From an uncultured archaeon (lineage in GTDB: Archaea > Asgardarchaeota > Thorarchaeia > Thorarchaeales > Thorarchaeaceae), in NCBI GenBank assembly GCA_964473825.1, contig CAYYQL010000005.1:1-64000 (forward strand): DNA of 64,000 bases, given 5' to 3'. Of this stretch, positions 29,076-60,743 are shown one piece after another. A program made the position numbers and the translations under genes. Each line of letters opens with the position of its first letter. The stretch's first letter is position 1. A model generated the notes under the pieces. The model was given only the letters and a program-made list of their open reading frames with translations, had not been told where the DNA came from and searched no databases.

Positions 29076-29231
29076 GGTATATCACTCACGAAACTTATAC
29101 CACTTCATCGCCCTATCCTCATGAGAGGGAGATATCTGTCGAGAGAATATGTCTGATTGCGCCAGATTCGTGCAAAATTCGAAGAATAGTTTATAGGATT
29201 TCACGTGTATGATGACACGGGAGTCTTAGAA

Positions 29232-30038
29232 ATGCAAATAGAAGCGTTGCCATTCTACATCACCATGGGACTGTTCTTCATCGGGTTTCTCGTTATCTTG
29301 CTGATTGCGATGTCTGTTCGGATTGTTAAGGAGTACGAGCGCGCAGTAATATTCCGTATGGGGAGATTCGTTGGAGTAAAGGGACCAGGGCTGTTCATGA
29401 TCATACCCGGACTGGACAAACTGCAGGTAGTAGACCTGCGCACAGTGACATACGACGCACGCACAATCAAAGTGATCACAAAAGACAACATCAGATGTGA
29501 TGTGGACTCATTCGTCTTCTATCGAGTGGTGGACCCGCAGCTTGCTGTACTGGAGATTGAGAACTACATCTCTGCGATCCGGAATCTAGCCAAGACTGTT
29601 CTACGAGACGTCCTCGGAACAGTGGACTTGGACGATCTCCTGACCCGCACACAGGACTTGACACTCAGAATCCAGGAGGAAATCGATGAGAAGACAGACC
29701 ACTGGGGAATCAAAGTGAGCGATGTGGCAATCAGTGATGTCATTCTACCCACAGAGATGCAGCGAGCCATAGCAAAGCAGGCCGAGGCTGAGCGGGAACG
29801 TCGAGCGCGAATCATCATCGCCGAGGGAGAGTACATGGCCGCGGAGAAGATGGTCAAGGCTGCAGAGATGTACGCCGCAAGCCCAATCACTCTGAAGATC
29901 CGCGAGTTACAGACTCTTCAAGAGATTGCGCGAGAGAAGAACTTGGTTGTGGTAACTACCACCGGGAACGCCGAAGAGATTGGACGCATGTTCGCCGTAG
30001 CCGAGGCGGCAAAGAGACAGAAAAGGAACGCGGACTAG
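29232..30038 (+). CDS. SPFH/stomatin (band 7) protein
   Basis: VRIVKEYERAVIFRMGR..G.KGPGL, WGIKV, AKQAEAERERRA. Confidence 0.93.
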   Translation: MQIEALPFYITMGLFFIGFLVILLIAMSVRIVKEYERAVIFRMGRFVGVKGPGLFMIIPGLDKLQVVDLRTVTYDARTIKVITKDNIRCDVDSFVFYRVVDPQLAVLEIENYISAIRNLAKTVLRDVLGTVDLDDLLTRTQDLTLRIQEEIDEKTDHWGIKVSDVAISDVILPTEMQRAIAKQAEAERERRARIIIAEGEYMAAEKMVKAAEMYAASPITLKIRELQTLQEIAREKNLVVVTTTGNAEEIGRMFAVAEAAKRQKRNAD

Positions 30039-30055
30039 GAAGGAGGAGAAAACAG

Positions 30056-30550
30056 ATGCAAGTGCTTGGAATCGGGTGGGCCTTCATGGCAATCACACTC
30101 ATAGCGCTGGGCTTGGCGTTAGTGGTCGCAGAGCTGGTATCAGAAGAGGCAGAGTGCTTCGGGCCAGCTGCGGTCTTCTTCCTGATTACTGGAACAGCTC
30201 TATGGTTCATGGTGACACCCCTGGTCTGGCCCACCCCACCGGCATGGCTGTCAGGACTGTCTCTAGTGCTTGTAGCCGTGACAGCAATCTTCTCGTGCTT
30301 CTCGTTGTTCCTGCTGTACAAGATCTCAAAAGTGAAGCAACAACCACCCATGAACCTTGACTTCATCGGCGGCGTTGGCCGGACGATGGACCGGCTGGGA
30401 CCAGGAGAAGAGGGGTATGTGCACTACCGCGGAGAGTATTGGCGGGCAAAGACCACGGGACCGGTCATCGAGGCAGGTCAACGTGTGAGAATTCATGGAA
30501 AGAGTGGGCTGGTCCTGCTCGTCGAGCCCGAGTTGAACCCCGGAAACTGA
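30056..30550 (+). CDS. NfeD-like (short) membrane protein
   Basis: 3 TM plus OB-like tail G.V...GEYWRA.....IEAGQRVRI....GLVLLVEP; follows stomatin. Confidence 0.88.
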   Translation: MQVLGIGWAFMAITLIALGLALVVAELVSEEAECFGPAAVFFLITGTALWFMVTPLVWPTPPAWLSGLSLVLVAVTAIFSCFSLFLLYKISKVKQQPPMNLDFIGGVGRTMDRLGPGEEGYVHYRGEYWRAKTTGPVIEAGQRVRIHGKSGLVLLVEPELNPGN

Positions 30551-33377: not shown

Positions 33378-33404
33378 GGGCTTCGGTCACTTCCATGACA
33401 TATC

Positions 33405-33909
33405 TTGGAATACGTGTTCTAAATCATCATCCAGTTGTCTTAAGAAGGAGTGAGAAGGACACTAATCAGAGGTAGTTGATGTTGAACAAGAGATCGGATG
33501 CATCAGCCTACGGCGGCAAGAGCTGGTCGCCAAGAACACAATCGTTCAGGCAAGAGATAGGCACTGTATGGAGACCGTGCGGCATTGACTCAGAATGGAA
33601 TGATCTCAAGACCGTTCTCCTTCATCGGCCTGGGAGAGAGCTGGAAGAGATTGTGGATGCTGATGCCGTCCAGATGATCGATATCCCGGACGGGGACTTG
33701 CTTGAGAAACAGCACAATGCCATGGCCCAAGCATATCGCAACGTCGGTGTGGGTGTCCTGTATGTCGAACCCTCGGAAGTACCCCCACCCAACCTGATGT
33801 TTGTGGCCGACCTCATGTTCATGACACCTGAGGGGGGCATCTTGGGGAGACCTGCCTCCACTGTGCGGGCGGGAGAGGAGAGGTATGTCGCAGCTCGTCT
33901 TGCTGCACT
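33405..33909 (+). repeat. Direct repeat of 46778-47282 (palindrome, leader and 5' half of amidinotransferase gene)
   Basis: Constant offset 13373; identical from ~33426 to 33648, then patchy; begins at palindrome variant TTGGAATACGTGTTCTAA. Confidence 0.9.
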
Positions 33910-46371: not shown

Positions 46372-46777
46372 ACAAACTCCTCAGTAACGGCAATCTATCA
46401 ATGAAATCGACATCAGATGATTGTTCAATGGGTCTTCTTGCCGTTGTCGAGAAACAAGATACTGGTATTATCCAATATATTTTTCCCGTTTCAATTACTT
46501 TGGTTCCAAAGGGATATAGAGAATTCGGGTCTTGTTCAAAAAATCAATAAGACAACGCTCCCGAATCCAGCAAGTGGAGGATACAAGACCTTGCGATTAC
46601 AACTAGGCTGATGCACGTCACTAGGCGGTCATTAGCTGGTTCATTCCGTTAGTAATACGTGTCACGGCATAGTGCAGACGAAATTGTGCACTAACGTTCA
46701 AGACAATGAAATGATCTGTTGTGCTCCCCCGGTATGTGAAATTTTTCGACCAATCAACACTCACGCAGAGCTTTGAC

Positions 46778-46795
46778 TTAGAACACGTGTTCTAA
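46778..46795. repeat. Perfect 18-bp palindrome TTAGAACACGTGTTCTAA
   Basis: Read directly; marks the left edge of the duplicated segment. Confidence 0.85.
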
Positions 46796-46851
46796 ATTAT
46801 CATCCAGTTGTCTTAAGAAGGAGTGAGAAGGACACTAATCAGAGGTAGTTG

Positions 46852-47802
46852 ATGTTGAACAAGAGATCGGATGCATCAGCCTACGGCGGCAAGAGCTGGT
46901 CGCCAAGAACACAATCGTTCAGGCAAGAGATAGGCACTGTATGGAGACCGTGCGGCATTGACTCAGAATGGAATGATCTCAAGACCGTTCTCCTTCATCG
47001 GCCTGGGAGAGAGCTGGAAGATATTGTGGATGCTGATTCCGTTCAGATGATTGAGATACCCGATGGAGCCACCCTTGAGGAACAGCACGACAATATGGCA
47101 CAGGTGTATCGAGACGCAGGTGTGGATGTCCTGTATGTCGAACCCTCGGAAGTACCCCCACCCAACCTGATGTTTGTAGCCGACCTCATGTTCATGACAC
47201 CAGAAGGGGCTGTTCTGGGGCGCCCGGCCTCCACGGTCCGTGCAGGAGAGGAGAGATATGTGGCGGCCCGACTTGCTGCGCTGGGCATACCTATCATCAG
47301 AAGCGTGTCGGGGAACGGGACATTCGAGGGAGCCGATGCTCTGTGGCTTGACCCCGAGACCGTTCTGATAGGCCTTGGCCTCCGAACAAATGCTGAGGGG
47401 GCATTTCAGGTGGCCACTGTTCTCGACCAGATGGAAATTGATGCCATCCCCGTTGACCTTCCCCACGGTTCGATGCATCTGATGGGGGACTTGAGGTTCG
47501 TTGACGAGGATGTGGCCGTCTGCAGGGAGAAACGGATCTCGTATGGTGCCCTCAATGAACTGCACGAGCGCGGGTTTTCGGTCATTTTCGTGCCCGATGA
47601 TACGGAGGTCTCAAAAAAGATGGCCATGAACTTCGTCACACTCGGCCCTAGCAAGATTTTGATGCCTGAGAAAGCGCCAGAAACTCGCAAGCTCCTCGAA
47701 GACCACAGTATCGAGTGCTGCACCACCGATATAGAGGAAATCGCAAAGGCGGCGGGCGGAATCGGCTGCATGACCGGAGTGCTTGAGCGCACGCTGGTCT
47801 AG
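46852..47802 (+). CDS. Amidinotransferase / arginine deiminase (DDAH-like) family protein
   Basis: LKTVLLHRPG.EL, PNLMFVAD, FEGAD, RTN.EG, MHL, AGGIGCMT. Confidence 0.88.
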   Translation: MLNKRSDASAYGGKSWSPRTQSFRQEIGTVWRPCGIDSEWNDLKTVLLHRPGRELEDIVDADSVQMIEIPDGATLEEQHDNMAQVYRDAGVDVLYVEPSEVPPPNLMFVADLMFMTPEGAVLGRPASTVRAGEERYVAARLAALGIPIIRSVSGNGTFEGADALWLDPETVLIGLGLRTNAEGAFQVATVLDQMEIDAIPVDLPHGSMHLMGDLRFVDEDVAVCREKRISYGALNELHERGFSVIFVPDDTEVSKKMAMNFVTLGPSKILMPEKAPETRKLLEDHSIECCTTDIEEIAKAAGGIGCMTGVLERTLV

Positions 47803-48643: not shown

Positions 48644-49021
48644 CTACCCGATTTCAAGTATGTCTTTCAGGACAAGGCGTATCTTTGTCAGCAGTCGCGA
48701 ATTGATTCTTCCAGTTACGGACTCGATTCTGTCAGTGGACACTGCACGAATATTGTGACACAGTGCATATGAGTCGCTTCTCAGTCCGCCGTGCCTGTTC
48801 AGGGGTACTACCGTCCAATAGTTTCTTGGAGTAGTGGTTAGTGGTACTGTTATGGCGATGGCGAGGCTGGAACTCCCTCCCCTGTGTTTGGTGGGCACTG
48901 AGACCACCACGTTCGGCCTCCTTCCACCTTGTTCATGTCCCACCGTAGGCTCTAAGTCCATGACGGCGATATCTCCGGGACTGACCGACTGCACTAGAAC
49001 CTCACTCCAGACCATCGTCAT
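48644..49021 (-). CDS. PemK/MazF-family endoribonuclease toxin
   Basis: GDI..MDLEPTVGHEQGGRRPNVVVS...VPLTT...SYALCHNIRAVS..RI; true start may be GTG ~48994. Confidence 0.9.
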   Translation of the reverse strand: MTMVWSEVLVQSVSPGDIAVMDLEPTVGHEQGGRRPNVVVSVPTKHRGGSSSLAIAITVPLTTTPRNYWTVVPLNRHGGLRSDSYALCHNIRAVSTDRIESVTGRINSRLLTKIRLVLKDILEIG

Positions 49022-49811
49022 GAATTCGAATGTTGACTTCTTCGACTATCTCGAAATCTTCAGCGTCGGGTATAATCCCTCGGAGCTTCACTAGGTCTGT
49101 TCCCTGATAGTTCTGTTCAGCTAGGATTGCCAACTGTGTTCTTATTTCCTGAGTCCAGTCTCTGAGAAGCCTCTCAAGAGTCTCGACGATTGGAGCTGTC
49201 AGTCGCTCATTGCGGTTCACGAGTACCCCCACAAACACAACTGCAGTCATGAATAGACTGATGTCAAACAAGAGAAAAGCCAAGCCCGTTTCTTGCCCCA
49301 TTTCCTCTGTAGCTCGGACAGCGTCGGGCATTTCTTCTGCATCCGTCAAATCTAGATGTTCAAAGGCCTTCTTCAGTTCTTGGATGCTATTCTTCTTCAT
49401 GTTGTCGGGTATCTGTGGCCACTGTTTGATTCCAGCAGAAAAGAGACTGAGAAGGATAGCAAGGCTTCGAAGAGCATAGGCCATGTTCGCAGCCAGGACA
49501 GGGCTGTAGAGTCCTTCAGCCGCATCAAGAAAACTCTCTTTTCGGAAATCTTCAATGGATGCTTTCAGTTTCGATAGGGATCTCTCAGCCTGTCTGTGCG
49601 CCTCATCCAGATCAGCCAAGACTATGTCGAATGAATCACGCAGTTCCTTTCGAACTAGCTGCTTGAGTACGTGGCCAATCCGGCCATCTCTCACCTCTTC
49701 AAGCAACTTGCGAAAGTCCTCATTTCCTTCGGGGTAGTCGGTGACGACAATCGGGGGAACAAACATGGGAATTGACACTCTCTTTTCCCTCCGTTCACTA
49801 ATAAGGGACAC
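49002..49811 (-). CDS. All-helical hypothetical protein in antitoxin position
   Basis: 269-aa ORF directly upstream of the PemK gene; acidic C-terminal tail. Confidence 0.6.
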   Translation of the reverse strand: MSLISERREKRVSIPMFVPPIVVTDYPEGNEDFRKLLEEVRDGRIGHVLKQLVRKELRDSFDIVLADLDEAHRQAERSLSKLKASIEDFRKESFLDAAEGLYSPVLAANMAYALRSLAILLSLFSAGIKQWPQIPDNMKKNSIQELKKAFEHLDLTDAEEMPDAVRATEEMGQETGLAFLLFDISLFMTAVVFVGVLVNRNERLTAPIVETLERLLRDWTQEIRTQLAILAEQNYQGTDLVKLRGIIPDAEDFEIVEEVNIRIHDDGLE

Positions 49812-49975: not shown

Positions 49976-50590
49976 TCATGAAGCCAGAATGGGGCTACCC
50001 GCCATGTAATCAGGAATCTCGATCCCCATGTATCTCAGAATTGTCGGACAGATATCCAGTATTCTCTGAGAGGCCTCTTTCGGTGTTGATTGGTCCGGAA
50101 AATGGGCAAGATAGATACCGTCCCAGTCATGAACCGCGTCGTCGGGGCCGATCTCATTCTCATAGTAGTACATCGATTCGTGGCCCATACCGCTCGATGC
50201 CCGCCATGCCAGACTGTCGAAGTATACCATGAGGTCTGGATAGTCACCCTGGCAGTCCTCGTAGATGTCCTCAGGTTTGTCAACCGTCACGTCCCAGTTC
50301 TGACCGTCGGGACCAGGTATGTTCAGAATCTTCTCAGCGAGCTGGTCACGGAAATGCTCATACTCCTCCGGTGGGACTATGCCGTGACGCTCGTATCCCT
50401 CCACATTGATGAAGATGCGGGAGTAGTAACCGCCCCACGCCCAGGCCTTCGTATCCCTCCAGTCGATCTCCAGATCGTCGAACTCGGTGGGACCAGAGGG
50501 GTGCTTCTTGAGGGTGAGAAGGCCCTCTTCTTCGAGCCACTGGTTAACGCAGAACGCGCCCCGTCTCGTCTTTGCACCATGGTTCGGAAC
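49976..50590 (-). pseudogene. 5'-truncated paralog of the alkaline-phosphatase-superfamily gene at 56509-57900
   Basis: Offset 6533; 50217-50545 identical to 56750-57078; diverged C-terminal ~40 aa; lacks the N-terminal catalytic half. Confidence 0.88.
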
Positions 50591-50599
50591 CACCCGACA

Positions 50600-50964
50600 T
50601 GTATGTGGTGCATCGAGAACCTGGTTCCCATAAGAACCATGGAGCCCGATGATTGGGTGTTCATAACCTACATTAACTGGATACTGAGGGCCCGGGTGAA
50701 CTGCACAGGATACTGGCAGAGATGAGAATGGAATAGGAGGGAGAGAGTGTTGACATCGATGACACCGTCGATTCCACAACCAGAGAGGACAGCGCGGTGG
50801 TGACGGGGCGGAATCCCCTCACAGACTGGAAACAACAACTGTCAGAGGAGCAGATTGCACCGGTGATTGAGATTGTTGACGAGTTTGGGCTCTCCAGCCT
50901 GTATGGACGAGAAACCATGCCCCGGATTCAGCACTTTACGCCTACCAGTGAGATACCGTCCTGA
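50600..50964 (+). pseudogene. PAPS-dependent sulfotransferase C-terminal remnant
   Basis: MWCIENLVPI...WVFITY, then after a frameshift and stop ELHRIL...STT...PLTDWKQQLSEEQI...IVDEFGL..LY. Confidence 0.6.
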
Positions 50965-51309
50965 GTGAAATCGAGGGGAGAGCGCACTATGGATATAGCC
51001 TGGCTTAAGGAGGAAGTGTCAATGACTCGGTATGGAGAGCTCTCGCTTTCTTGGACTGCAAGATCCAATTCATCGGCAATTGTCTAGTCGACAAACTTCA
51101 TCTTAGCAGCAACAAGACGGCCTTGGGAGAGCTCGAGGTCCTTATGGACAGAGGAAGTCCAGAGAAATCTCAATCACCATCTGAGTGGGGGCATGGCGCA
51201 TCGATTACATACACGTCTGTAGGCTCTATGTGCTAATAACCCATAATAGGGAGGCACAAGTATAGACATTATCTCTTTGAGAACATATCCGATAAGTGAG
51301 GGTGAAATA

Positions 51310-52914
51310 TTGGCAAAGCGTTTTGAAAGGGCACTAGTGATGAAGAGTGCCGTGATACGTGATGAGGAGTGCGTAGAAGGCGAAGAAGAGGCGCTGATTC
51401 TGTTTGCAGAAGCGCTCAGACGGTCTATGTCAAAATACGCAAGAACAGTGAAGCGATGCAAGAGATATGCAGCTGTGGCCTTCGTTGAGGCTGTTGTCGT
51501 AGCAGCTGCGCTACTGCTACTGACACAGGGTGATATTTCCATGCTGATGTATACTGCAATCTTGTCCGCCCTCTCTCTTGCTCTGGGTTTCTATTTGCTC
51601 TGGAAGAGTAGGAGGCTCAGGCCTGAGTACAAGATCAGGAGTATTGAACGGATGGAGTATCCGATTGCGTTGTATCGAGAGGAAGACGGACGTTTCATCG
51701 TCTTCGATGCAGGTGGAGCTGCGGCTCAGAAGGAATATTCTTTTCCTGCAATCAAAGACACGGATCGGCTCGGCAACTCGGTGGTTCAGATTCGGAATCA
51801 GATGAAGCGTTACTGGGACTTGCTCGACATGGGAGGATTCCAGCAGGCAGAGACTCTCAGGGCAATGCCGGACTTTGGTGAGGTCACGGCTTCAGGAAAG
51901 ATAGAACAGATTGTTGAGATTCCAATGGGCGGCCTCGTCGATTCCATGGATGAAACCAACATCGAGCGAACTCGAATGAGGGCACCCGTGATAGAACGTG
52001 ACGATCCAGTTATTGATGAGATAGAGTCACTGGCATGTTTTGCTGCGTTGGAAACCAATCTTCCCACAGAAGAACGTGACATGGGGATTCTAGTCGATCG
52101 AGGACTCTGCATGGAAATATCTCCTGAAGATTTGATGAAACAAGCACGAAGTTTCAGGAAATGGTCTAAGGAGGCCCTAGAGCAAGATATCATGACACTG
52201 GTGAAAGATGTAGTGGTCGAATTAGATGAGGAATTCTCTGAGCTCAGACATATCCTCATGTCCACACCAGCTCTGATTGAAGCCACCCTGCCATATTCAG
52301 TAAGCCTCCATGAGGATTTCATGTATTTCCACTTCTGCCCACAGTGTCGTCTGTCAGACTTGGAAGAGGCAGAGAGAGAGACCGATTTCAGAAGATGGGT
52401 AAACGAGAAGATACTCGGTAACGCCCTTGATGATACAGATCTTGTGCATCCACATACATATGGCGATCCAGATACAGTCGAAAGAATCCGAGAACGTATC
52501 GAGGCAACGATTAGGTCCAATCTTCCCTTAGCAGACCCGGTCTTCCCCGTTATCCTTGCAGACCTCAGAGAGTTGACGATGGACGAGCTTGGGAGCTATC
52601 ACTGCGAAGTATGCGGCCTCCAAGGAGAAGGCATCAAGGTGCCTAGGTCAGTGCATCCACTGGCATCTGCATACCTGCTCAATCTCAGAGAACAGGCTAA
52701 ACACATTCAGAAGAAATCCGACGTCATCATCAGAAACGTGCATGATGTGATTATGAACAAGGAATCGAAACTGGTTTCTCTTGGAGCGTATGAACAGAGC
52801 GTTCAACAGGCCGAACAGAGTAAATTGACAGTCAAAGGAGACCTCGATGCTGCAAACGAGGTCGAGAAGGTAGTGAGGGCATTCGAGAAGTCTGCCGAAA
52901 GAGGGAGGCGATAG
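51310..52914 (+). CDS. Hypothetical 2-TM protein with split Zn ribbon and C-terminal coiled coil
   Basis: GAGGGTGA RBS before TTG 51310; two TMs; FCPQC...HCEVC; heptad-rich tail. Confidence 0.75.
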   Translation: MAKRFERALVMKSAVIRDEECVEGEEEALILFAEALRRSMSKYARTVKRCKRYAAVAFVEAVVVAAALLLLTQGDISMLMYTAILSALSLALGFYLLWKSRRLRPEYKIRSIERMEYPIALYREEDGRFIVFDAGGAAAQKEYSFPAIKDTDRLGNSVVQIRNQMKRYWDLLDMGGFQQAETLRAMPDFGEVTASGKIEQIVEIPMGGLVDSMDETNIERTRMRAPVIERDDPVIDEIESLACFAALETNLPTEERDMGILVDRGLCMEISPEDLMKQARSFRKWSKEALEQDIMTLVKDVVVELDEEFSELRHILMSTPALIEATLPYSVSLHEDFMYFHFCPQCRLSDLEEAERETDFRRWVNEKILGNALDDTDLVHPHTYGDPDTVERIRERIEATIRSNLPLADPVFPVILADLRELTMDELGSYHCEVCGLQGEGIKVPRSVHPLASAYLLNLREQAKHIQKKSDVIIRNVHDVIMNKESKLVSLGAYEQSVQQAEQSKLTVKGDLDAANEVEKVVRAFEKSAERGRR

Positions 52915-52915
52915 C

Positions 52916-53938
52916 ATGAGTCAGTATGATGAGATTGCTAGGGTAACGCACTTGATTGATAGGCAGACCTCAATCCTCGCGGAAATCAGGGATGAACTAA
53001 GAAGGCAGACAGATGAGCTAGGAGAGGGATTTGGACACTTGGGGAGGGCCTTGGAGTGGGTTGAACAGGAGATACGCCTTCTCAAGAACGCCACCCTGAG
53101 CATCGAGAAAGCAAAGGCAGAAGCGATTATCGATACAAAGAGGGAACAAATGGAGAGTGCAGTGAGAATCTGGTCAAGAGCAAAAGAACGATTTGCTTCA
53201 CAGTACCGGAAAGTGATTGCCGACTACGTGAAGGGTCTTGAAGACAATGTCCACCGATTCACCCGATTGGTTTCTGACGAGCTGTCCCCCATGTTCAAGA
53301 TCAACGAGGGGGCTAGCGACTTTCAACAGATAATCGAAGAAATGCGTCCCAAAGCCATTGACAACCTCCGAACTGAAACGGCTGTCAACATGTCAGGGAT
53401 GAAGGGATCAGAACTGATGGATAGGTACAAAAGTGCCAGAGAGAGCCTCACTCGGTTCTATAATGAGCGCAAAGCGCTTGTCGACAGAATCGAAGCGGCA
53501 AAGTCTGTGATTGAATTCGACCTGAACCAGCAGATTGCGCCGGGGGAAACGGTTCTCTTCAGAATACCATTCTATGCAGTCACATTTGAGGACGCAAACG
53601 GTAATCTCGTCAGGGAACTCATTGGCCCGAGCAATGCCGTTTCCACGGAAGATGGCGATAATGAACTTATTCCAAAGCTACTGGAACCTCTAGCTCCGAG
53701 TCTCAAAGAAATGGTTGCTGAATCACCAGCCTTCGACATAGACCGAATGATTGGTAGTATACGGCCGACTGGGGGAATTCCTGAGAGTGCTCAATCTGCA
53801 GTTAGCAATGTTGCTCGCTATTTGACATATGCAGGCATGAGTAAGGATCTAGCAGAGGAGATCCAGCAATTCTATGGGCCGGACTGCAGAGATTGGCAAC
53901 CTGAAGCAGAGCACACGCAGGGAGATGATGAAGTGTGA
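52916..53938 (+). CDS. Hypothetical coiled-coil protein with C-terminal alpha/beta domain
   Basis: About 200 aa helical/heptad region then FRIPFYAVTFED; starts 1 nt after the previous stop. Confidence 0.75.
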   Translation: MSQYDEIARVTHLIDRQTSILAEIRDELRRQTDELGEGFGHLGRALEWVEQEIRLLKNATLSIEKAKAEAIIDTKREQMESAVRIWSRAKERFASQYRKVIADYVKGLEDNVHRFTRLVSDELSPMFKINEGASDFQQIIEEMRPKAIDNLRTETAVNMSGMKGSELMDRYKSARESLTRFYNERKALVDRIEAAKSVIEFDLNQQIAPGETVLFRIPFYAVTFEDANGNLVRELIGPSNAVSTEDGDNELIPKLLEPLAPSLKEMVAESPAFDIDRMIGSIRPTGGIPESAQSAVSNVARYLTYAGMSKDLAEEIQQFYGPDCRDWQPEAEHTQGDDEV

Positions 53939-55152
53939 GGAATTCGTTCGTGTCAACAGAACCCGGCGCTCATATCGATGATGTAGAGAACAAGATCCTG
54001 CTAGACGGCAAGTACTACGGAATAGGGGCAGTTTCTGGTTACAACGAAGTCCTTGTCGATGATGGAGCCCGACAGGGCAATTCAATACATGCCTGGCGTA
54101 GGATTGTTATCAACTCCGGGGCGGCCGTTCATGGCAGCGTCTACAGTGATGAGGATATCATAATCAGAAGTGGAAAGGGCAAACAATCAGAATGCTCTGC
54201 TGTCCTGATTGGAGATGTTCTTGCAAGGAATAGACTGGAGGTGGAGCCTCCCACCAAGCAAGATGAGTCGGGTCCGGTAGTTATCTTGGGGAATGTCTAC
54301 GCCAAAGAAATCCATGTGGGCGGTGAATTGTTCGTGCAGGGGAATGTCTACGCCACAAATAGCATGACTGTGAAATCGCCCACCTTCATCGCGGGAAGGC
54401 TGAAAATCGGAAGAGCTCAGTTTGAGAATGCTCACGGCAAGAGAATCTCAATAAAGGGAAAGGGCGAGCTGTCGTCTACCACGGCCTTCGGAGTGATATG
54501 TTACGGGGATCTGGAACTCCATCGAGGCATTTCAGTCCTGGAACCAATGGTCATTGCTAGAAACGGCGATGTGTTCATGAAAGATGAAGAAAGAGTTCGC
54601 GTAGTATCTGAGATGTGTCTTAGCTGTCAGGATTGCGAGGCTGACCCATTCATGTGTCGCGAGTATCTACGGGGGCGATGCAGGAAGTTCGAGTATCTCA
54701 TGGCAGAGGATGCGTCGAAATACAAGAACACAACCACACTCTCATGGTACTGGCGAGCTGGCCCGGGAATGCTAGGCCACCATTACAGCATCCATAAGCT
54801 GTACGAGAGAGCTTTGAAGCGATTCGATAGCTCTGCATTCAGACAAGATGGTATCGCATCAATCAGTTTTGAGAATGCATATGAAGACACTATCGCGGCA
54901 CTTGTGGAAATCGATACATCAAGAGATGCCAAGGCAAGGTGGTTCGCCTCGAAAGTTACCGCCGCAGGCAATCTCCCCGGAGAGAGCTACTACAGGCTGC
55001 TACAGAAGATGCTACCCGGCCCGCCAACAGATGAGGAGGTTCAACTGCGGAAAGTGAAACCACAAGAGATTGAGGAAACCAAGGCAATCGAAACATTCCT
55101 TGAGAATCTGGATGACGGAAACCTGCTGCCAGATCCTGAAGAAGAGCAGTAA
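53935..55152 (+). CDS. Bactofilin/COG4801-like beta-solenoid protein with Cys cluster
   Basis: Repeats QGNSIHA, HGSVYS, IGDVLA, LGNVYA, QGNVYA, AGRLKI; CLSCQDC...C...C; GTGA overlap with upstream gene. Confidence 0.65.
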   Translation: MRNSFVSTEPGAHIDDVENKILLDGKYYGIGAVSGYNEVLVDDGARQGNSIHAWRRIVINSGAAVHGSVYSDEDIIIRSGKGKQSECSAVLIGDVLARNRLEVEPPTKQDESGPVVILGNVYAKEIHVGGELFVQGNVYATNSMTVKSPTFIAGRLKIGRAQFENAHGKRISIKGKGELSSTTAFGVICYGDLELHRGISVLEPMVIARNGDVFMKDEERVRVVSEMCLSCQDCEADPFMCREYLRGRCRKFEYLMAEDASKYKNTTTLSWYWRAGPGMLGHHYSIHKLYERALKRFDSSAFRQDGIASISFENAYEDTIAALVEIDTSRDAKARWFASKVTAAGNLPGESYYRLLQKMLPGPPTDEEVQLRKVKPQEIEETKAIETFLENLDDGNLLPDPEEEQ

Positions 55153-55206
55153 CTCCAAGAGGAATCTGATACATGAACAGATGATGGCCAATGAAGTATT
55201 CAGGAC

Positions 55207-56265
55207 GTGTCTAGCATGAACTGGGACATCCAGGAAGAGATAGCTCTGACCGGACACAAGAGTGCTGTTCATGATGTCTGCTTTCTGAATGGCTCCGAGA
55301 AACTGATATCCGCTTCTGAGATGGGAGTGGTACGCCTGTGGCGCATCACAGACTCGAAGACCCTCTTGTCGCGACGCCTTCACAGCGACACTATCTATGA
55401 CCTGAGCGTGAGCCCGGGCGGTGGTGAAATGGCCACTATCTCAGCAGATAGGACGCTCTCTGTGTGGGACTTGTCCGATGAGTCATCCCACCCCGTATCT
55501 CAAGTACTGGATTCGACCGCATACTGCCTAGAACACTTGAGAGATGATACGCTAGCAATGGGCATGGACAATGGGTGTATTGTACTCCGGGACATTCCAG
55601 GATGCCACGTGAATCAGGTTTCACATGCCCATGAGGACGCAGTCAATGATATGCAATGCAGCCCCAGTGGTGAGTTCTTGGTTTCCGCATCTAGAAATGG
55701 AGAGGTCAGTCTCTGGGCAACCCCGGAACTGCAACTCTACCGGAGATTTCACGGGGCAGAAACTCCGGTGAAATGTGTCGACTTCAGTGCAGATGGCGTC
55801 ACCGTGGCCGCCGGAGATGAAGAGGGCAGAGTTCTATTGTGGGATGCACATATGTCAAGTCCAATCGCATGCCTTGAAACCTGCAATGAGTCAATTGCAG
55901 ACATTAAGTTCCATCCTAGTGGACGTCTGCTGCTCGTTCTTGGTTCATCAGGATTCCTCTATACCAGGGACATAACCAGTACTGATAGTGCTGAAATAGA
56001 TGTATGCGGCGAGGGAGCGAACTGCCTATCTATCAGTTCCGATGGACGTCTGGTCGCAGTGGGGTGCGGCGATTCAAGCATCAGACTTCTGGCACTGTGG
56101 CCTGAGAAGGTCCAAGCAGAGGGTCACCTGAAGAGGCATGTATCCTGGACATGCCGGTACTGCTTTGCCCCCCTTACGGTGAGAGATGTGGAAAGACTGA
56201 AAGCAAATCAACCCGTTTCTTGCTGCTACTGCGGTCGGACTCTCACCTTGGAGCTATACGAGTAG
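55207..56265 (+). CDS. WD40 beta-propeller with C-terminal Zn ribbon
   Basis: About 7 GH/AH...WD-type repeats; CRYC...CCYCG. Confidence 0.9.
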   Translation: MSSMNWDIQEEIALTGHKSAVHDVCFLNGSEKLISASEMGVVRLWRITDSKTLLSRRLHSDTIYDLSVSPGGGEMATISADRTLSVWDLSDESSHPVSQVLDSTAYCLEHLRDDTLAMGMDNGCIVLRDIPGCHVNQVSHAHEDAVNDMQCSPSGEFLVSASRNGEVSLWATPELQLYRRFHGAETPVKCVDFSADGVTVAAGDEEGRVLLWDAHMSSPIACLETCNESIADIKFHPSGRLLLVLGSSGFLYTRDITSTDSAEIDVCGEGANCLSISSDGRLVAVGCGDSSIRLLALWPEKVQAEGHLKRHVSWTCRYCFAPLTVRDVERLKANQPVSCCYCGRTLTLELYE

Positions 56266-56508: not shown

Positions 56509-57900
56509 TTACGTTGGCGCGATTGCTTCACCCTTTGCGTAACCCGGAATATTCGAGCCCATGAACCTCAGAATGGTGGGGAAGATGTCGAGTATGCTCC
56601 TGCGTTCAACCTTGGACTCTGTCTGACCCGGAAAATGGGCTAGATAGATACCGTCCCAGTCATGAACCGCATCGTCGGGGCCGATCTCATTCTCATAGTA
56701 GTACATCAATTCGTGGCCCATACTGCTCGACGCGCGCCACGCCAGACTATCGAAGTATACCATGAGGTCTGGATAGTCACCCTGGCAGTCCTCGTAGATG
56801 TCCTCAGGTTTGTCAACCGTCACGTCCCAGTTCTGACCGTCGGGACCAGGTATGTTCAGAATCTTCTCAGCGAGCTGGTCACGGAAATGCTCATACTCCT
56901 CCGGTGGGACTATGCCGTGACGCTCGTATCCCTCCACATTGATGAAGATGCGGGAGTAGTAACCGCCCCACGCCCAGGCCTTCGTATCCCTCCAGTCGAT
57001 CTCCAGATCGTCGAACTCGGTGGGACCAGAGGGGTGCTTCTTGAGGGTGAGAAGGCCCTCTTCTTCGAGCCACTGGTTGACGCAGATAGCTCCCTTCCTC
57101 GCCTTTGCTCCATGGTCGGAAACCAGCATGATGAGACAGTCCTCAGGAGCGAGTTCAATCATCTCACCCAGCTGTCGGTCCATCAGCCGGTAATACTCTC
57201 TGAAGCGTTCCTCGTAGGCGTTGCCCGCCTCGTATAGATGATGGGTCTTGTCGTAGTACTTCCAGAAGCCGTGATGAAGACGGTCAGTACCCACCTCCAT
57301 GAGCCCAAAAAAGTCCCATTCCTTGTTCTTGAGGATGTGCTTGGCAACTTCATGCCGCTTGCTCGTCATTCTGAAGAGATCTTCGAAGAGCCGCTTCTTG
57401 TCCTCGGTCCTGTAGAAGACATCAAGCATGTAATCTCCGACAATCTCTGCAATCTCCCCCGCGAAGGAAGCCGGATAGGTGTATTCTTGTGATGTATCAG
57501 GCGTGATGAACCCGGACACGAGAATGCCGTTCACACTCTGCGGGGGATAGGTGGGTGGAAAGCCAATCACAGCGACCTTGTAGCCTTGATCACCAAGGAG
57601 ATCCCATAGCCTAGGTAGCCGTATTTTCGTAGAGTCGGGAATCCATACTCGCCTGTAATCGCCTGCCTGCCGATGTCTGAAACCGTACATGCCAAGCTGA
57701 CCGGGGTCTGCACCTGTCACCATAGACATCCAAGCAGGTATGGTGATAGGCGGCTTCGTGCTCCTGAGGGGGCCATAGGTGCTCTTCTGCATCAACTCCT
57801 GCAGGTTCGGGAGCTCATCACGTATATTCTCGAACACAAGACCCGGAGGAACACCGTCCCAGCCTATCAACATGACCTTTTTCTTCTGAGATTCGGTCAC
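56509..57900 (-). CDS. Alkaline phosphatase superfamily (type I phosphodiesterase/nucleotide pyrophosphatase-like) protein
   Basis: IGWDG, STKPPITIPAW.SM.TG..PG..G.YGF, DRLHH, VSDHG, GPDDAVH. Confidence 0.88.
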   Translation of the reverse strand: MTESQKKKVMLIGWDGVPPGLVFENIRDELPNLQELMQKSTYGPLRSTKPPITIPAWMSMVTGADPGQLGMYGFRHRQAGDYRRVWIPDSTKIRLPRLWDLLGDQGYKVAVIGFPPTYPPQSVNGILVSGFITPDTSQEYTYPASFAGEIAEIVGDYMLDVFYRTEDKKRLFEDLFRMTSKRHEVAKHILKNKEWDFFGLMEVGTDRLHHGFWKYYDKTHHLYEAGNAYEERFREYYRLMDRQLGEMIELAPEDCLIMLVSDHGAKARKGAICVNQWLEEEGLLTLKKHPSGPTEFDDLEIDWRDTKAWAWGGYYSRIFINVEGYERHGIVPPEEYEHFRDQLAEKILNIPGPDGQNWDVTVDKPEDIYEDCQGDYPDLMVYFDSLAWRASSSMGHELMYYYENEIGPDDAVHDWDGIYLAHFPGQTESKVERRSILDIFPTILRFMGSNIPGYAKGEAIAPT

Positions 57901-57906
57901 TGGAAA

Positions 57907-58683
57907 TCACGTCCCCATAGTGAGCAACACCCACAGTAGCGTTAAGAGTCCGACTATAAGGGTCGAAACCGCAACAAGCGAACGAACGTGGTATTGCTCC
58001 AACTTAGCCGTCGTGAACGCAGAGAGTGGAGCCGCAAGTGCCGCACCGATAGTGATGGTGACAAGGAGGAATACATTCGTGATCCCAGTGATAACAAAAT
58101 GCAGGAGGAATCCCACAATACAGATGAGACCCTCCACGAAGCCCGTAATGGCAACTGCCGCCCTTGGAGGTATATCACTGAGAATCTGCCCGCTCACAGT
58201 CATAGGCCCATATCCACCACCAGATATCCCCTTGTTGAAGGCCGCAATGGAACCCACAAGGAGTAATCGTCTCCGAGAGTAGGTCATATGCCTGCCCCAA
58301 TTCGCTAGCATCAGGATGCCCATGGCACTCACCACGAGCGCGATGTAAATCTTGACAAAGAGAGCAGAGAGCGCTATGATGGTGAAGGTCGAGAGAATAA
58401 CTCCTGCCATCCCCGTGATGACGAGGATTCGGAATGAGGACTGCTCGATGCCGCTCTCGAGAAGATTGACATTCTCAAACTTGTGATGAAAGACCGAGCA
58501 CAATAGACCGGCCACAAACTGGCTGAACAGAAGGACAGGAACGAATTCTATCGGCAGGTAACCAATAATCAGAAGAATCGGTGAGAGGATTGTGCCGAAT
58601 CCCATCCCGAGAGTGGCATCAACGTATTCCAAGATAAAAGCCAGAACAATGAGAAACACAGCAGACTCTAACATCTCGATCAT
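57907..58683 (-). CDS. TauE/SafE (TSUP) sulfite/organosulfonate transporter
   Basis: DATLGMGFGTILSP, NKGISGGGYGP; about 8 TM. Confidence 0.88.
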   Translation of the reverse strand: MIEMLESAVFLIVLAFILEYVDATLGMGFGTILSPILLIIGYLPIEFVPVLLFSQFVAGLLCSVFHHKFENVNLLESGIEQSSFRILVITGMAGVILSTFTIIALSALFVKIYIALVVSAMGILMLANWGRHMTYSRRRLLLVGSIAAFNKGISGGGYGPMTVSGQILSDIPPRAAVAITGFVEGLICIVGFLLHFVITGITNVFLLVTITIGAALAAPLSAFTTAKLEQYHVRSLVAVSTLIVGLLTLLWVLLTMGT

Positions 58684-58781
58684 ACCACCTCTTCACTGTC
58701 TCAACACCTGAGTAACCACTCTGTTCCTATAGCCGATGTAGCTGAATCTAGGACAACTACATGTGATTGCATTGCATGCTC

Positions 58782-59018
58782 TCAGTCCAGATAGCCCAGT
58801 GCTTTCAGTCGGTCCTTAACCTTCTTCTCATCTTCTTCGGTGAAGGGATTGCTCTCCTCTTTCTCGGCCTGACTGGCTATGATCTCCCTCAAGACGTAGG
58901 TGACATAGCTTGACACCGACGTGAACCCCGTCCCCTTAATCTGATCCTCAATCTTGTTGAAGAGGGGAACCGGTATCGATACCGTTGTGAACTTGCCAGT
59001 TCGTTTCTTCTTACCCAA
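58782..59018 (-). CDS. CopG/ribbon-helix-helix regulator
   Basis: TTVSIPVPL..KI...I.GTGFTSVSSYV.YVLRE; tail EEDEKKVKDRLKALGYLD. Confidence 0.85.
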   Translation of the reverse strand: MGKKKRTGKFTTVSIPVPLFNKIEDQIKGTGFTSVSSYVTYVLREIIASQAEKEESNPFTEEDEKKVKDRLKALGYLD

Positions 59019-59035
59019 GTTGTCTTTCCTCCAAC

Positions 59036-59563
59036 TTACTCCTTCAGATAGCCCAGTTCTCGTGCCTTTTCAATGATTCTCATGACGGACTCGGCGGGCT
59101 TATCCTTGTGTGTCTCCACCACAAGGTCGGGCTCCAAGGGTTCCTCGTAGGGGTCATCGATCCCGGTGAACTGCTTGATCTCACCGGCCAGCGCTCGCTT
59201 GTACAGCCCCTTCGGGTCACGTTCGATGCAGACATCCAGCGGGGCCTTCACAAAGACCTCCATCATGTTTGGAATCTGCACCTTTGCGTATGCTCGGGTT
59301 TCACGATAGGGAGAGATAAGCGCAACCACAACGATGACACCGTTTCGCGTCAGCAGCTTGGTGCAAAATATCACGCGCTTGTTGTGTTCATTCCTGTCCT
59401 CTTTCGAAAAGCCCAGGTCACTGCTGAGGCCCTTTCGGATCTCATCGCCGTCCATGGTCTCGATGTATCTGTTTCCCTTGAAGTGGTCCACAAGTCCCTT
59501 TGCTATAGTCGTCTTCCCGGAGCCAGAGAGGCCTGTGAGCCAGACGCAGAATCCTTCATCCAT
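59036..59563 (-). CDS. cysC: Adenylyl-sulfate (APS) kinase
   Basis: WLTGLSGSGKTT, DGDEIR, LGFSKEDR, ISPY, RDPKGLY, FTGIDDPYE; start set at ATG 59563. Confidence 0.95.
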   Translation of the reverse strand: MDEGFCVWLTGLSGSGKTTIAKGLVDHFKGNRYIETMDGDEIRKGLSSDLGFSKEDRNEHNKRVIFCTKLLTRNGVIVVVALISPYRETRAYAKVQIPNMMEVFVKAPLDVCIERDPKGLYKRALAGEIKQFTGIDDPYEEPLEPDLVVETHKDKPAESVMRIIEKARELGYLKE

Positions 59564-59591
59564 GTTATCACCGTCAATCATTGTTTGGTTG

Positions 59592-60743
59592 TCACTGTAC
59601 AAATGGTTCATCGAACTCGAGAATCGTCTTGGCAACCTCGGGACGCATCATGTCTGAGGGAGGGGTCTCACCGTTCTGGAGCATCTCACGAATCTTGCGA
59701 CCAGCGAAGATGATCTGGTCCTCAGGACCGTGGGGGCATACCTTGTCGTTCGCGATGCTGTTGCACTTGTTGCAGTAGAAGAACGACTTGAAGGTGATTG
59801 GCATGATGGAGAGATCGGGATACTCCTCGAAGATGTAGTGGGCATCAAATGGCCCGTAGTAGTCGCCGACGCCTGCATGATCTCTTCCCACAATGAAGTG
59901 CGTGCAGCCGAAGTTCTTACGCATGATTGCATGATGGATGGCCTCCTTGGGGCCTCCGTACCTCATCTCCGTGTGGAGCACTGCCATGACTGCGTACTTG
60001 CGCAGGTAGTAGTTCCGCATCAGTGCGTTGTAAGATGTGAGAATGACCTCGTCCTTGAAATCGCCCGGCTTCTTCTTCCCGATGAGGGGGTTGATGAAGA
60101 TGCCATCCACGATGGAGAGAGCCGTCTTCTGAACGTACTCATGACCGAGGTGCGGAGCGTTTCGCGTCTGGAAGGCAACGATGCTTCGCCATCCCTTTTC
60201 CGCAAACAAGATACGGGTCTCCTTCGGATGGAGGGTGTAGTCAGAATAGGGGTTGCCGATGTCGTCAAAGAGGCGGATTCGACCGCCCAGCAGCAAGTCG
60301 TTCATGCCGTTGACCTTCGCGACCCCAGGGTGGGCTGCGTCCTTTGTGCCAAAGACCGACTCCGAGAATCGGGCCTTGTCGTAGTCGTAGATTTCCTCCA
60401 CCTCGAGGGTTGCCACGGGTCGCCCATCATACACGAGACCCAGCATGTCTCCGTGCGTGATTCCCTCGATCTCCTTCTTGCTCACATCGAGAACAATGGG
60501 AATGGTCCAAGGAGTGTCATCAAGAAGACGGCCATGGTCGAGAACGGACTCAAGCTCATTCTCCACCAAGAAGCCCTTCAGCGGACTGAAGACCCCGTAG
60601 GCGATATTGTCTATCTCCTGTGCAATCTCCTTTGATATCTCAAGAACGGGGTACTCGCCCTGCTCGAAGTTCTCCCTGATTCTCTGGGCCTCTTTGTCGC
60701 TCACGCGCCTATCTATGAGCACTCCGCCATGTGGTTGTATCAT
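59592..60743 (-). CDS. sat: Sulfate adenylyltransferase
   Basis: PHGG.L, FSPL.GF, AFQTRN.PH.GHE, MRYGGP.EA..HA..RKNFGCTHFIVGRDHAG. Confidence 0.96.
   Translation of the reverse strand: MIQPHGGVLIDRRVSDKEAQRIRENFEQGEYPVLEISKEIAQEIDNIAYGVFSPLKGFLVENELESVLDHGRLLDDTPWTIPIVLDVSKKEIEGITHGDMLGLVYDGRPVATLEVEEIYDYDKARFSESVFGTKDAAHPGVAKVNGMNDLLLGGRIRLFDDIGNPYSDYTLHPKETRILFAEKGWRSIVAFQTRNAPHLGHEYVQKTALSIVDGIFINPLIGKKKPGDFKDEVILTSYNALMRNYYLRKYAVMAVLHTEMRYGGPKEAIHHAIMRKNFGCTHFIVGRDHAGVGDYYGPFDAHYIFEEYPDLSIMPITFKSFFYCNKCNSIANDKVCPHGPEDQIIFAGRKIREMLQNGETPPSDMMRPEVAKTILEFDEPFVQ

Follow-up and report, generated by a model that had tools for sequence, protein, structure and literature searches.

A recurrent archaeal gene triad encoding a membrane anchor, a coiled-coil partner and a bactofilin-like β-helix, with an optional link to ESCRT-type loci

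The window analysed here is a stretch of 64,000 nucleotides from an uncultured thorarchaeon (GenBank assembly GCA_964473825.1, contig CAYYQL010000005.1, positions 1 to 64,000 of the forward strand), in which four co-oriented genes, here called g1 to g4, form an operon whose nearest named homologues are from Ca. Thorarchaeota. The first three recur together across archaea as a conserved triad, which we file as an undescribed accessory module of membrane systems of the endosomal sorting complex required for transport (ESCRT) and SPFH types. The four genes are as follows.

51310 to 52914, + strand: g1, core gene; TTG start; hairpin of two transmembrane (TM) segments, split four-Cys site and C-terminal coiled coil
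52916 to 53938, + strand: g2, core gene; long coiled coil and small α/β domain
53935 to 55152, + strand: g3, core gene; long right-handed β-helix, four-Cys site, W-x-W-R motif and helical tail
55207 to 56265, + strand: g4, variable slot; WD40 propeller and Zn ribbon

A first-pass annotation, made from the DNA letters alone, had reported four intact co-oriented genes, and the coordinates of the open reading frames (ORFs), all on the plus strand, bear this out, with spacings of 1 nt between g1 and g2, −4 nt between g2 and g3 and 54 nt between g3 and g4. The start of g1 was placed at the TTG at 51310, with alternatives at 51277 and at the ATG at 51340, giving a product of 524 to 545 amino acids depending on the start. 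Hydrophobic segments were found in g1 (two) and in none of g2, g3 or g4. Each gene is single-copy in the host genome, and GC content at third codon positions (GC3) of the operon genes, 0.51–0.54, is typical of the genome (0.52 ± 0.05), on which ground recent foreign acquisition of the operon was rejected.

The order g1-g2-g3 is kept in about 30 loci scattered over four major archaeal groups, with identities below 30% in the distant ones, distributed as 11 Asgard-type, 4 Thermoprotei, 9 haloarchaeal, 4 from other archaea, in one of which an additional gene separates g2 from g3, and 2 from Thermoproteota with g1 and g2 joined as a fusion. Because the three genes recur together in all these loci, their grouping is not a matter of chance, and g3 was never met without g1 and g2 among the loci examined. 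Named carriers include Infirmifilum lucidum (Thermoprotei) and the haloarchaea Halosimplex marinum and Haloplanus litoreus, and a whole-library profile search with g1 returned 33 representatives of which all those bearing a name were archaeal. The triad is rare, being present in about 1–2% of sampled genomes: 8 of 400 Asgard genomes (strong matches), 4 of 301 Thermoproteota and 4 of 401 Halobacteria (E 1e-10, a threshold at which the subtype with a short g3 is missed). Two same-genus genomes, 87% and 92% complete, did not yield it. In a midpoint-rooted tree of g3 with three long branches, two clades were resolved, one comprising Asgard archaea and Thermoprotei and holding the window, the other containing every ESCRT-linked case described below; the Thermoprotei are nested within the Asgard sequences, consistent with transfer.

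The operon had initially been read as a four-gene system. Its genes do co-occur elsewhere, albeit as the triad, and a four-gene core was rejected, the fourth gene being exchangeable between lineages. In the window this slot is taken by the WD40 propeller with a Zn ribbon that had been proposed, as confirmed by the match of g4 to PF00400 (105 bits against a cut-off of 27, in five stretches, E 9e-31) and by its C-terminal CxxC..CxxC; the length of g4 is compatible with seven blades, and among PADLOC profiles it matched only through a generic repeat region. This form was found in only three Thorarchaeota loci. Two closer relatives (L009 and L010) carry instead a WD40 protein with an Ig/platform-like region and a coiled coil, two Asgard loci (one named Njordarchaeia) a STAND-like ATPase, the Thermoprotei a propeller-Ig-kinase, and the remaining loci zinc-ribbon proteins, SPFH or a Vps4-type ATPase. 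The Zn ribbon of g4 is 44% identical to the ribbon that ends a giant surface protein of the host genome (L083:1-6495, contig C41), and g4 may be a shortened protein of propeller-Ig-platform-ribbon type. In the giant protein itself, which exceeds 2100 amino acids, Ig repeats are combined with a single TM segment and, on the cytoplasmic side, an Ig/platform-like domain preceding the ribbon; this domain is related to the tail of the L009 and L010 WD40 partners.

The product of g1 consists of an N-terminal helix, a two-TM hairpin, a small β region, a split four-Cys site and a C-terminal coiled coil. Its description as a two-TM protein with CPQC and CEVC about 85 residues apart and a coiled-coil tail agrees with the hydrophobic segments, with the motif spacing of 85 residues and with a structural model (pLDDT, the predicted local distance difference test, 84.5; predicted TM-score, pTM, 0.41), in which the TM pair lies at the tip of a long helical hairpin, followed by a mixed middle part and the terminal coiled coil. 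Across 34 homologues C333, C336 and C422 are invariant and the TM sequences vary. No family in Pfam, NCBIfam or PADLOC matched g1 or g2, singly or across alignments, and Pfam searches for ESCRT-III/PspA, CdvA and a steadiness box gave no match in 34 members of g1 and 18 of g2. Fold searches with g1 (PDB Foldseek, VIA-wide and Atlas) returned no clear relative, only generic hairpins or an archaeal cluster at TM-scores of 0.31–0.39, from a whole-chain model on which no claim of a new fold is based. The hairpin aligned with CHMP1B and CHMP4B at Z 8.8–9.1, level with unrelated hairpins; F-BAR entries headed the Foldseek rows, yet at E 0.44 or worse, TM-score 0.12 and root-mean-square deviation (rmsd) above 30 Å.

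The general plan of multi-part α-pore formers is a long hairpin with a hydrophobic tip and a further long-helix partner. The products of g1 and g2 would fit such a plan, and a multi-component pore or export conduit can be envisaged: hairpins of g1 would oligomerise within the membrane, g2 would make up the rest of a helical barrel and g3 would serve as plug or spike. No such fold was present among the top matches of the 524-residue g1 model (pTM 0.41), and the TM sequences are not conserved; we regard a pore as very unlikely.

For g2, sequence features uphold the proposed long coiled coil and small α/β domain; an Atlas feature search returned only clusters without names, and no paralogy was detectable between g1 and g2. 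A partnership of the two is indicated by nature: in two Thermoproteota genomes (G447 and G424) g2 is fused to the N-terminal half of g1, with the N-terminal part of the G447 fusion matching g1 (95%, E 2e-8) and its C-terminal part g2 (98%, E 1e-12). In a three-chain model g2 scored 0.49 against g1 plus g3; the best control gave 0.00, and so did the replacement of g1. Contacts agreed to at least 81% between runs, and the partner pLDDT was at least 63 in the g1-g2-g3 complex. In calibration, 58 of 80 solved pairs attained the mark, as did 2 of 110 mismatched ones, and the range up to 0.60, in which the value of 0.49 falls, held 7 of the 80 solved pairs and both passing mismatches. Because few solved pairs but both mismatches score in this range, the model only weakly suggests that g2 binds g1, and their partnership is argued for more strongly by the natural fusion.

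The model of g3 is confident (pLDDT 87, pTM 0.85) and shows a long β-helix, then the Cys site, then helices. Its strands span residue 12 to about 225, making a solenoid roughly twice the length of a bactofilin, with the Cys/helical domain following at one end. The first-pass annotation had seen here a bactofilin-like solenoid with a helical tail, and this is corroborated by the model, which displays the right-handed, three-faced parallel β-helix typical of bactofilins and in which residues 37–147 superpose on the whole Thermus thermophilus bactofilin 6RIA (Z 7.5, rmsd 1.7 Å, 89 of 90 residues). The match to Pfam Bactofilin PF04519, in one stretch at 116–165, is sub-threshold (26 bits, cut-off 27.9); an Atlas feature search gave bactofilin-like leads, all under 0.9, the g3 profile hit nothing significant among PDB sequences, and a plasmid search with one haloarchaeal g3 gave no match. 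The compact six-winding domain with free ends of bactofilins is not seen in g3. A five-Cys cluster, also proposed initially, was rejected as a family trait: four cysteines are conserved (C228, C231, C241 and C249), and haloarchaeal g3 proteins lack them. In two Asgard genomes g3 carries long C-terminal fusions (L007:6231-9071 and L030:1047-3857) that by eye contain Zn ribbons and winged-helix-like and platform-like parts.

As modelled, g3 shares the geometry of bactofilins without being a standard member of them, and one of its ends carries an extra domain. Its polymerisation is doubtful because the model places the Zn/helical domain after the solenoid. This bears on the possibility of a membrane-tethered, bactofilin-type cytoskeleton, in which g3 would polymerise end to end and g1 and g2 would tie the filament to the membrane and so shape the cell. 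The 6RIA superposition, the sub-threshold Pfam match and the precedent of halofilins, which shape haloarchaeal cells (PMC11459167), speak for it; the doubled solenoid with its one-sided Cys/helical domain and the existence of large C-terminal fusions speak against it, as do the constant association of g3 with g1 and g2 and a presence in 1–2% of genomes, a poor fit for a shape system. We therefore hold a cytoskeleton of this kind to be unlikely.

Among the structures matched by g3, those with the highest Z are lyase-like and adhesin β-helices, all right-handed, and in the host genome and one other (G003) the genes lie amid NeuA/NeuB-like, sulfate-related and AlkP genes. Both points would suit a unit that modifies or binds glycans as part of the sugar and sulfate island around it, g3 then being a lyase or acyltransferase. 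This sugar and sulfate context is absent elsewhere, however, the invariant residues of the solenoid are nearly all glycines, and g3 has no hydrophobic signal or anchor. Right-handed solenoids fit g3 at 1.7–4.5 Å and left-handed acyltransferases only at 11–14 Å, so that a left-handed hexapeptide acyltransferase was rejected, and a glycan-related role as a whole appears hardly credible.

The neighbourhoods of the triad offer a further lead, absent from the first-pass annotation. In eight of the nine haloarchaeal loci a Vps4/CdvC-type ATPase, matching the CdvC model over residues 10–382, lies within about 10 kb in one of several gene orders, together with a small ESCRT-III-like gene, an SPFH-zinc-ribbon gene and mostly also genes resembling arCOG09748 and arCOG08177; in two loci the triad lies between ESCRT-type genes. 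Among 201 sampled Halobacteria, just 7 had this ESCRT-III-like gene. At one further locus (L040) a Vps4-type gene comes directly after g3. In G447 the fused triad is preceded by a gene for such an ATPase (MIT+AAA, about 10 kb away) and by two small helical genes, an arCOG09748-like gene and a propeller-kinase. In all, Vps4-type ATPases occur at 10 of about 30 triad loci. The position of the small neighbours before the ATPase and their basic/acidic layout are compatible with ESCRT-III, and the neighbours and fusions of the triad draw on the same domain set as archaeal ESCRT loci, which includes SPFH-coiled coil-Zn ribbon, Ig/propeller kinases, Ig-platform and winged helix (PMC10936438). By architecture and neighbourhood, rather than by direct sequence comparison, our haloarchaeal loci seem to match the 'Main' clade of that survey, which lists Halosimplex halophilum members. 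The MIT+AAA ATPase of G447 (L087:14030-16589) is a second, divergent one, apart from the canonical Cdv locus of the same genome, and its small neighbours are ESCRT-III-like. In Infirmifilum lucidum, an Ig-repeat protein adjoining the triad (L036:7545-9398) has a terminal domain related to arCOG09748-like proteins (E 2e-7).

The products of g1, g2 and g3 very probably form one membrane-anchored complex, the TM hairpin of g1 and the recurrence of the triad supporting the membrane-anchored unit that had been foreseen. Our preferred reading, to which we give a probability of roughly 0.5, is that of a complex without enzymatic activity that sits on the membrane's inner face, carries an exchangeable adaptor and hands over to ESCRT-III/Vps4- and SPFH-type machinery of membrane stress or remodelling. 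The predicted two-helix hairpin would anchor g1 with both ends on the same side, presumably the cytoplasmic one given its Cys sites and partners. As the natural fusions and the weakly predicted binding suggest, g2 would pair with g1 through the long helices to give a stalk, to which g3, judging from gene order, may add a rigid β-helical head. The fourth gene, here the WD40 propeller, would supply an exchangeable sensor or adaptor. Such a scaffold would most likely mark or organise a membrane patch and pass it to ESCRT-III/Vps4- and SPFH-type machinery, a coupling suggested by the gene linkage in other archaea; in the thorarchaeon studied here it would work either in trans, with ESCRT proteins from other contigs, or without ESCRT.

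Several observations weigh against this coupling. The window locus has no Vps4 (MIT+AAA) or ESCRT-III gene, the host having its Snf7 genes elsewhere, on C4 and on C10, the C10 gene next to an AAA ATPase, and neither type of gene was found near any of the 15 loci of the Asgard and Thermoprotei clade, many of whose contigs are short. All ESCRT-linked cases fall in the g3 clade other than that of the window. The triad-bearing, single-contig genomes of Infirmifilum lucidum (G400) and G615 yielded no MIT-bearing CdvC and no Snf7 match. Conversely, six of nine haloarchaeal ESCRT loci inspected had no triad within 10 kb, and the haloarchaeal triad loci are kin rather than independent, so that the linkage rests on about three independent lineages. 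The small neighbours in haloarchaea and G447 matched neither Snf7 nor any PDB entry and are candidate ESCRT-III proteins by position, size, charge and neighbours. Because no Asgard locus has a nearby Vps4 and the triad is present in two complete Thermoproteota genomes in which neither Vps4 nor Snf7 was found, the link to ESCRT is optional; an obligate ESCRT subunit was rejected, the triad occurring without ESCRT and ESCRT loci without the triad.

The operon is bracketed by two AlkP-family copies that share 499 bp at 96% identity as a direct repeat.

50095 to 50592: left copy of the 499-bp direct repeat, being the 3' part of a truncated gene of the AlkP family (− strand)
56628 to 57125: right copy of the 499-bp direct repeat, within the intact AlkP-family gene at 56509-57900 (− strand)

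The operon had initially been placed amid pseudogenes and on the opposite strand to the flanking AlkP copies; of these copies only the left one (49976-50600) is truncated, and the right one is an intact ORF of 463 amino acids. This bracket, and a MazF-like gene nearby (by motif only), are among the features that could be expected of a virus-defence or conflict module, in which the variable fourth protein would sense infection, the triad would be the effector or signalling platform and ESCRT, where present, one output. The very patchy occurrence and the nesting of the Thermoprotei, consistent with transfer, also agree with defence, as do partners that include STAND-like ATPases and kinases and, directly upstream of one triad (L032:3610-9738), vWA, phosphatase-like and kinase genes in a TerY-P-like layout. 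On the other side, none of the anti-phage profiles of PADLOC (library of 2023) matched g1 to g3, the neighbourhoods are mostly not defence islands and GC3 is the same as the genome average. The triad showed no known effector domain, be it a nuclease, an NADase or another, which supports the absence of catalytic motifs noted at first and the view of a non-enzymatic unit. A defence role, the main rival reading, is possible but would be somewhat surprising, and it is compatible with the membrane-scaffold reading that we favour rather than exclusive of it.

Membrane stress modules of the PspA-YdjGHI type in Bacillus encode an ESCRT-III-family protein with SPFH, zinc-ribbon and membrane accessory proteins, and have no β-solenoid. 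The ESCRT- and SPFH-linked triad loci share this combination but differ in the solenoid, and no homology of g1, g2 or g3 to the accessories was found. A YdjI-PspA link in Bacillus is cited within the survey of archaeal ESCRT loci (Main, Meth_adaptin and Halo_adaptin; Makarova et al. 2024, PMC10936438). Those loci are close in content, as the triad lies inside or beside sets of MIT-type AAA ATPase, ESCRT-III-like, arCOG09748- and arCOG08177-resembling, SPFH-CC-Zn ribbon and kinase genes, and its variable partners share propeller, Ig, platform and winged-helix domains. In the accessible parts of the survey and its supplements, however, a triad of TM plus coiled coil, coiled coil and β-solenoid does not appear, nor do the words 'bactofilin' and 'solenoid'. 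From bactofilins and halofilins, with which g3 shares the right-handed three-faced β-helix in its N-terminal half, the triad differs by the longer solenoid, the C-terminal four-Cys/helical domain and the fixed operon with two coiled-coil proteins, as known from genes and models, and it lacks both the hairpin-linked double domain of HalA and the five-TM layout of HalB (PMC11459167). A likeness to coat adaptors (COPI/AP, BBS2/7/9 layout) was perceived by eye in the L009 and L010 fourth proteins, built of WD40, a two-part β domain and a coiled coil, but searches did not confirm an adaptin appendage in their tail; the window g4 has no appendage part, and neither an α-solenoid nor a small GTPase is present. 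The searchable literature, outside which most subscription papers lie, yielded no description of the triad. With no family, defence model, solved fold (for g1) or searched paper covering it, the earlier suggestion of an undescribed system stands. We tentatively raise a wider proposal, itself unlikely: the triad may constitute a separate pan-archaeal class of membrane scaffolds (TM stalk, coiled-coil partner, β-helical head) that selects cargo upstream and links exchangeable adaptors of WD40, appendage-like or kinase type to ESCRT-III/Vps4 where present, including in trans in Asgard archaea.

Further features of the window surround the operon. Adjoining the intact AlkP gene are sulfate activation genes (ATP sulfurylase-like and APS kinase-like) and a sulfite-exporter-like gene (57907-60743, −), and the MazF/PemK-like toxin gene (48644-49811, −, motif only) overlaps an upstream 269-amino-acid helical gene. 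A second direct repeat (33404-33703 and 46777-47076; 300 nt, 95%) derives from a partly duplicated amidinotransferase-like gene and encloses a glycosylation block and the gene for a 2194-amino-acid β-helix/Ig surface protein. In G003 (L005, C1:410000-426550) the operon likewise lies amid amidinotransferase-like, sulfite-exporter-like and NeuB/NeuA-like genes, which suggests that both operons reside in a common variable surface-glycan island. A stomatin-like SPFH gene with an NfeD-like neighbour (29205-30550, +), 21 kb from the operon, is a common pair and probably unrelated.

If the defence reading were true, the triad would represent a system without an enzymatic effector. With the triad, bactofilin-like solenoids gain a heteromeric use in which they are probably capped. 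Its occurrence in Asgard archaea and in the cultured Halosimplex marinum, Haloplanus litoreus and Infirmifilum lucidum, the last representing the ESCRT-free state, makes it testable. For the question of what recruits archaeal ESCRT that does not serve division to membranes, and what role it has there, the triad provides a tangible candidate, one that includes an integral membrane anchor.

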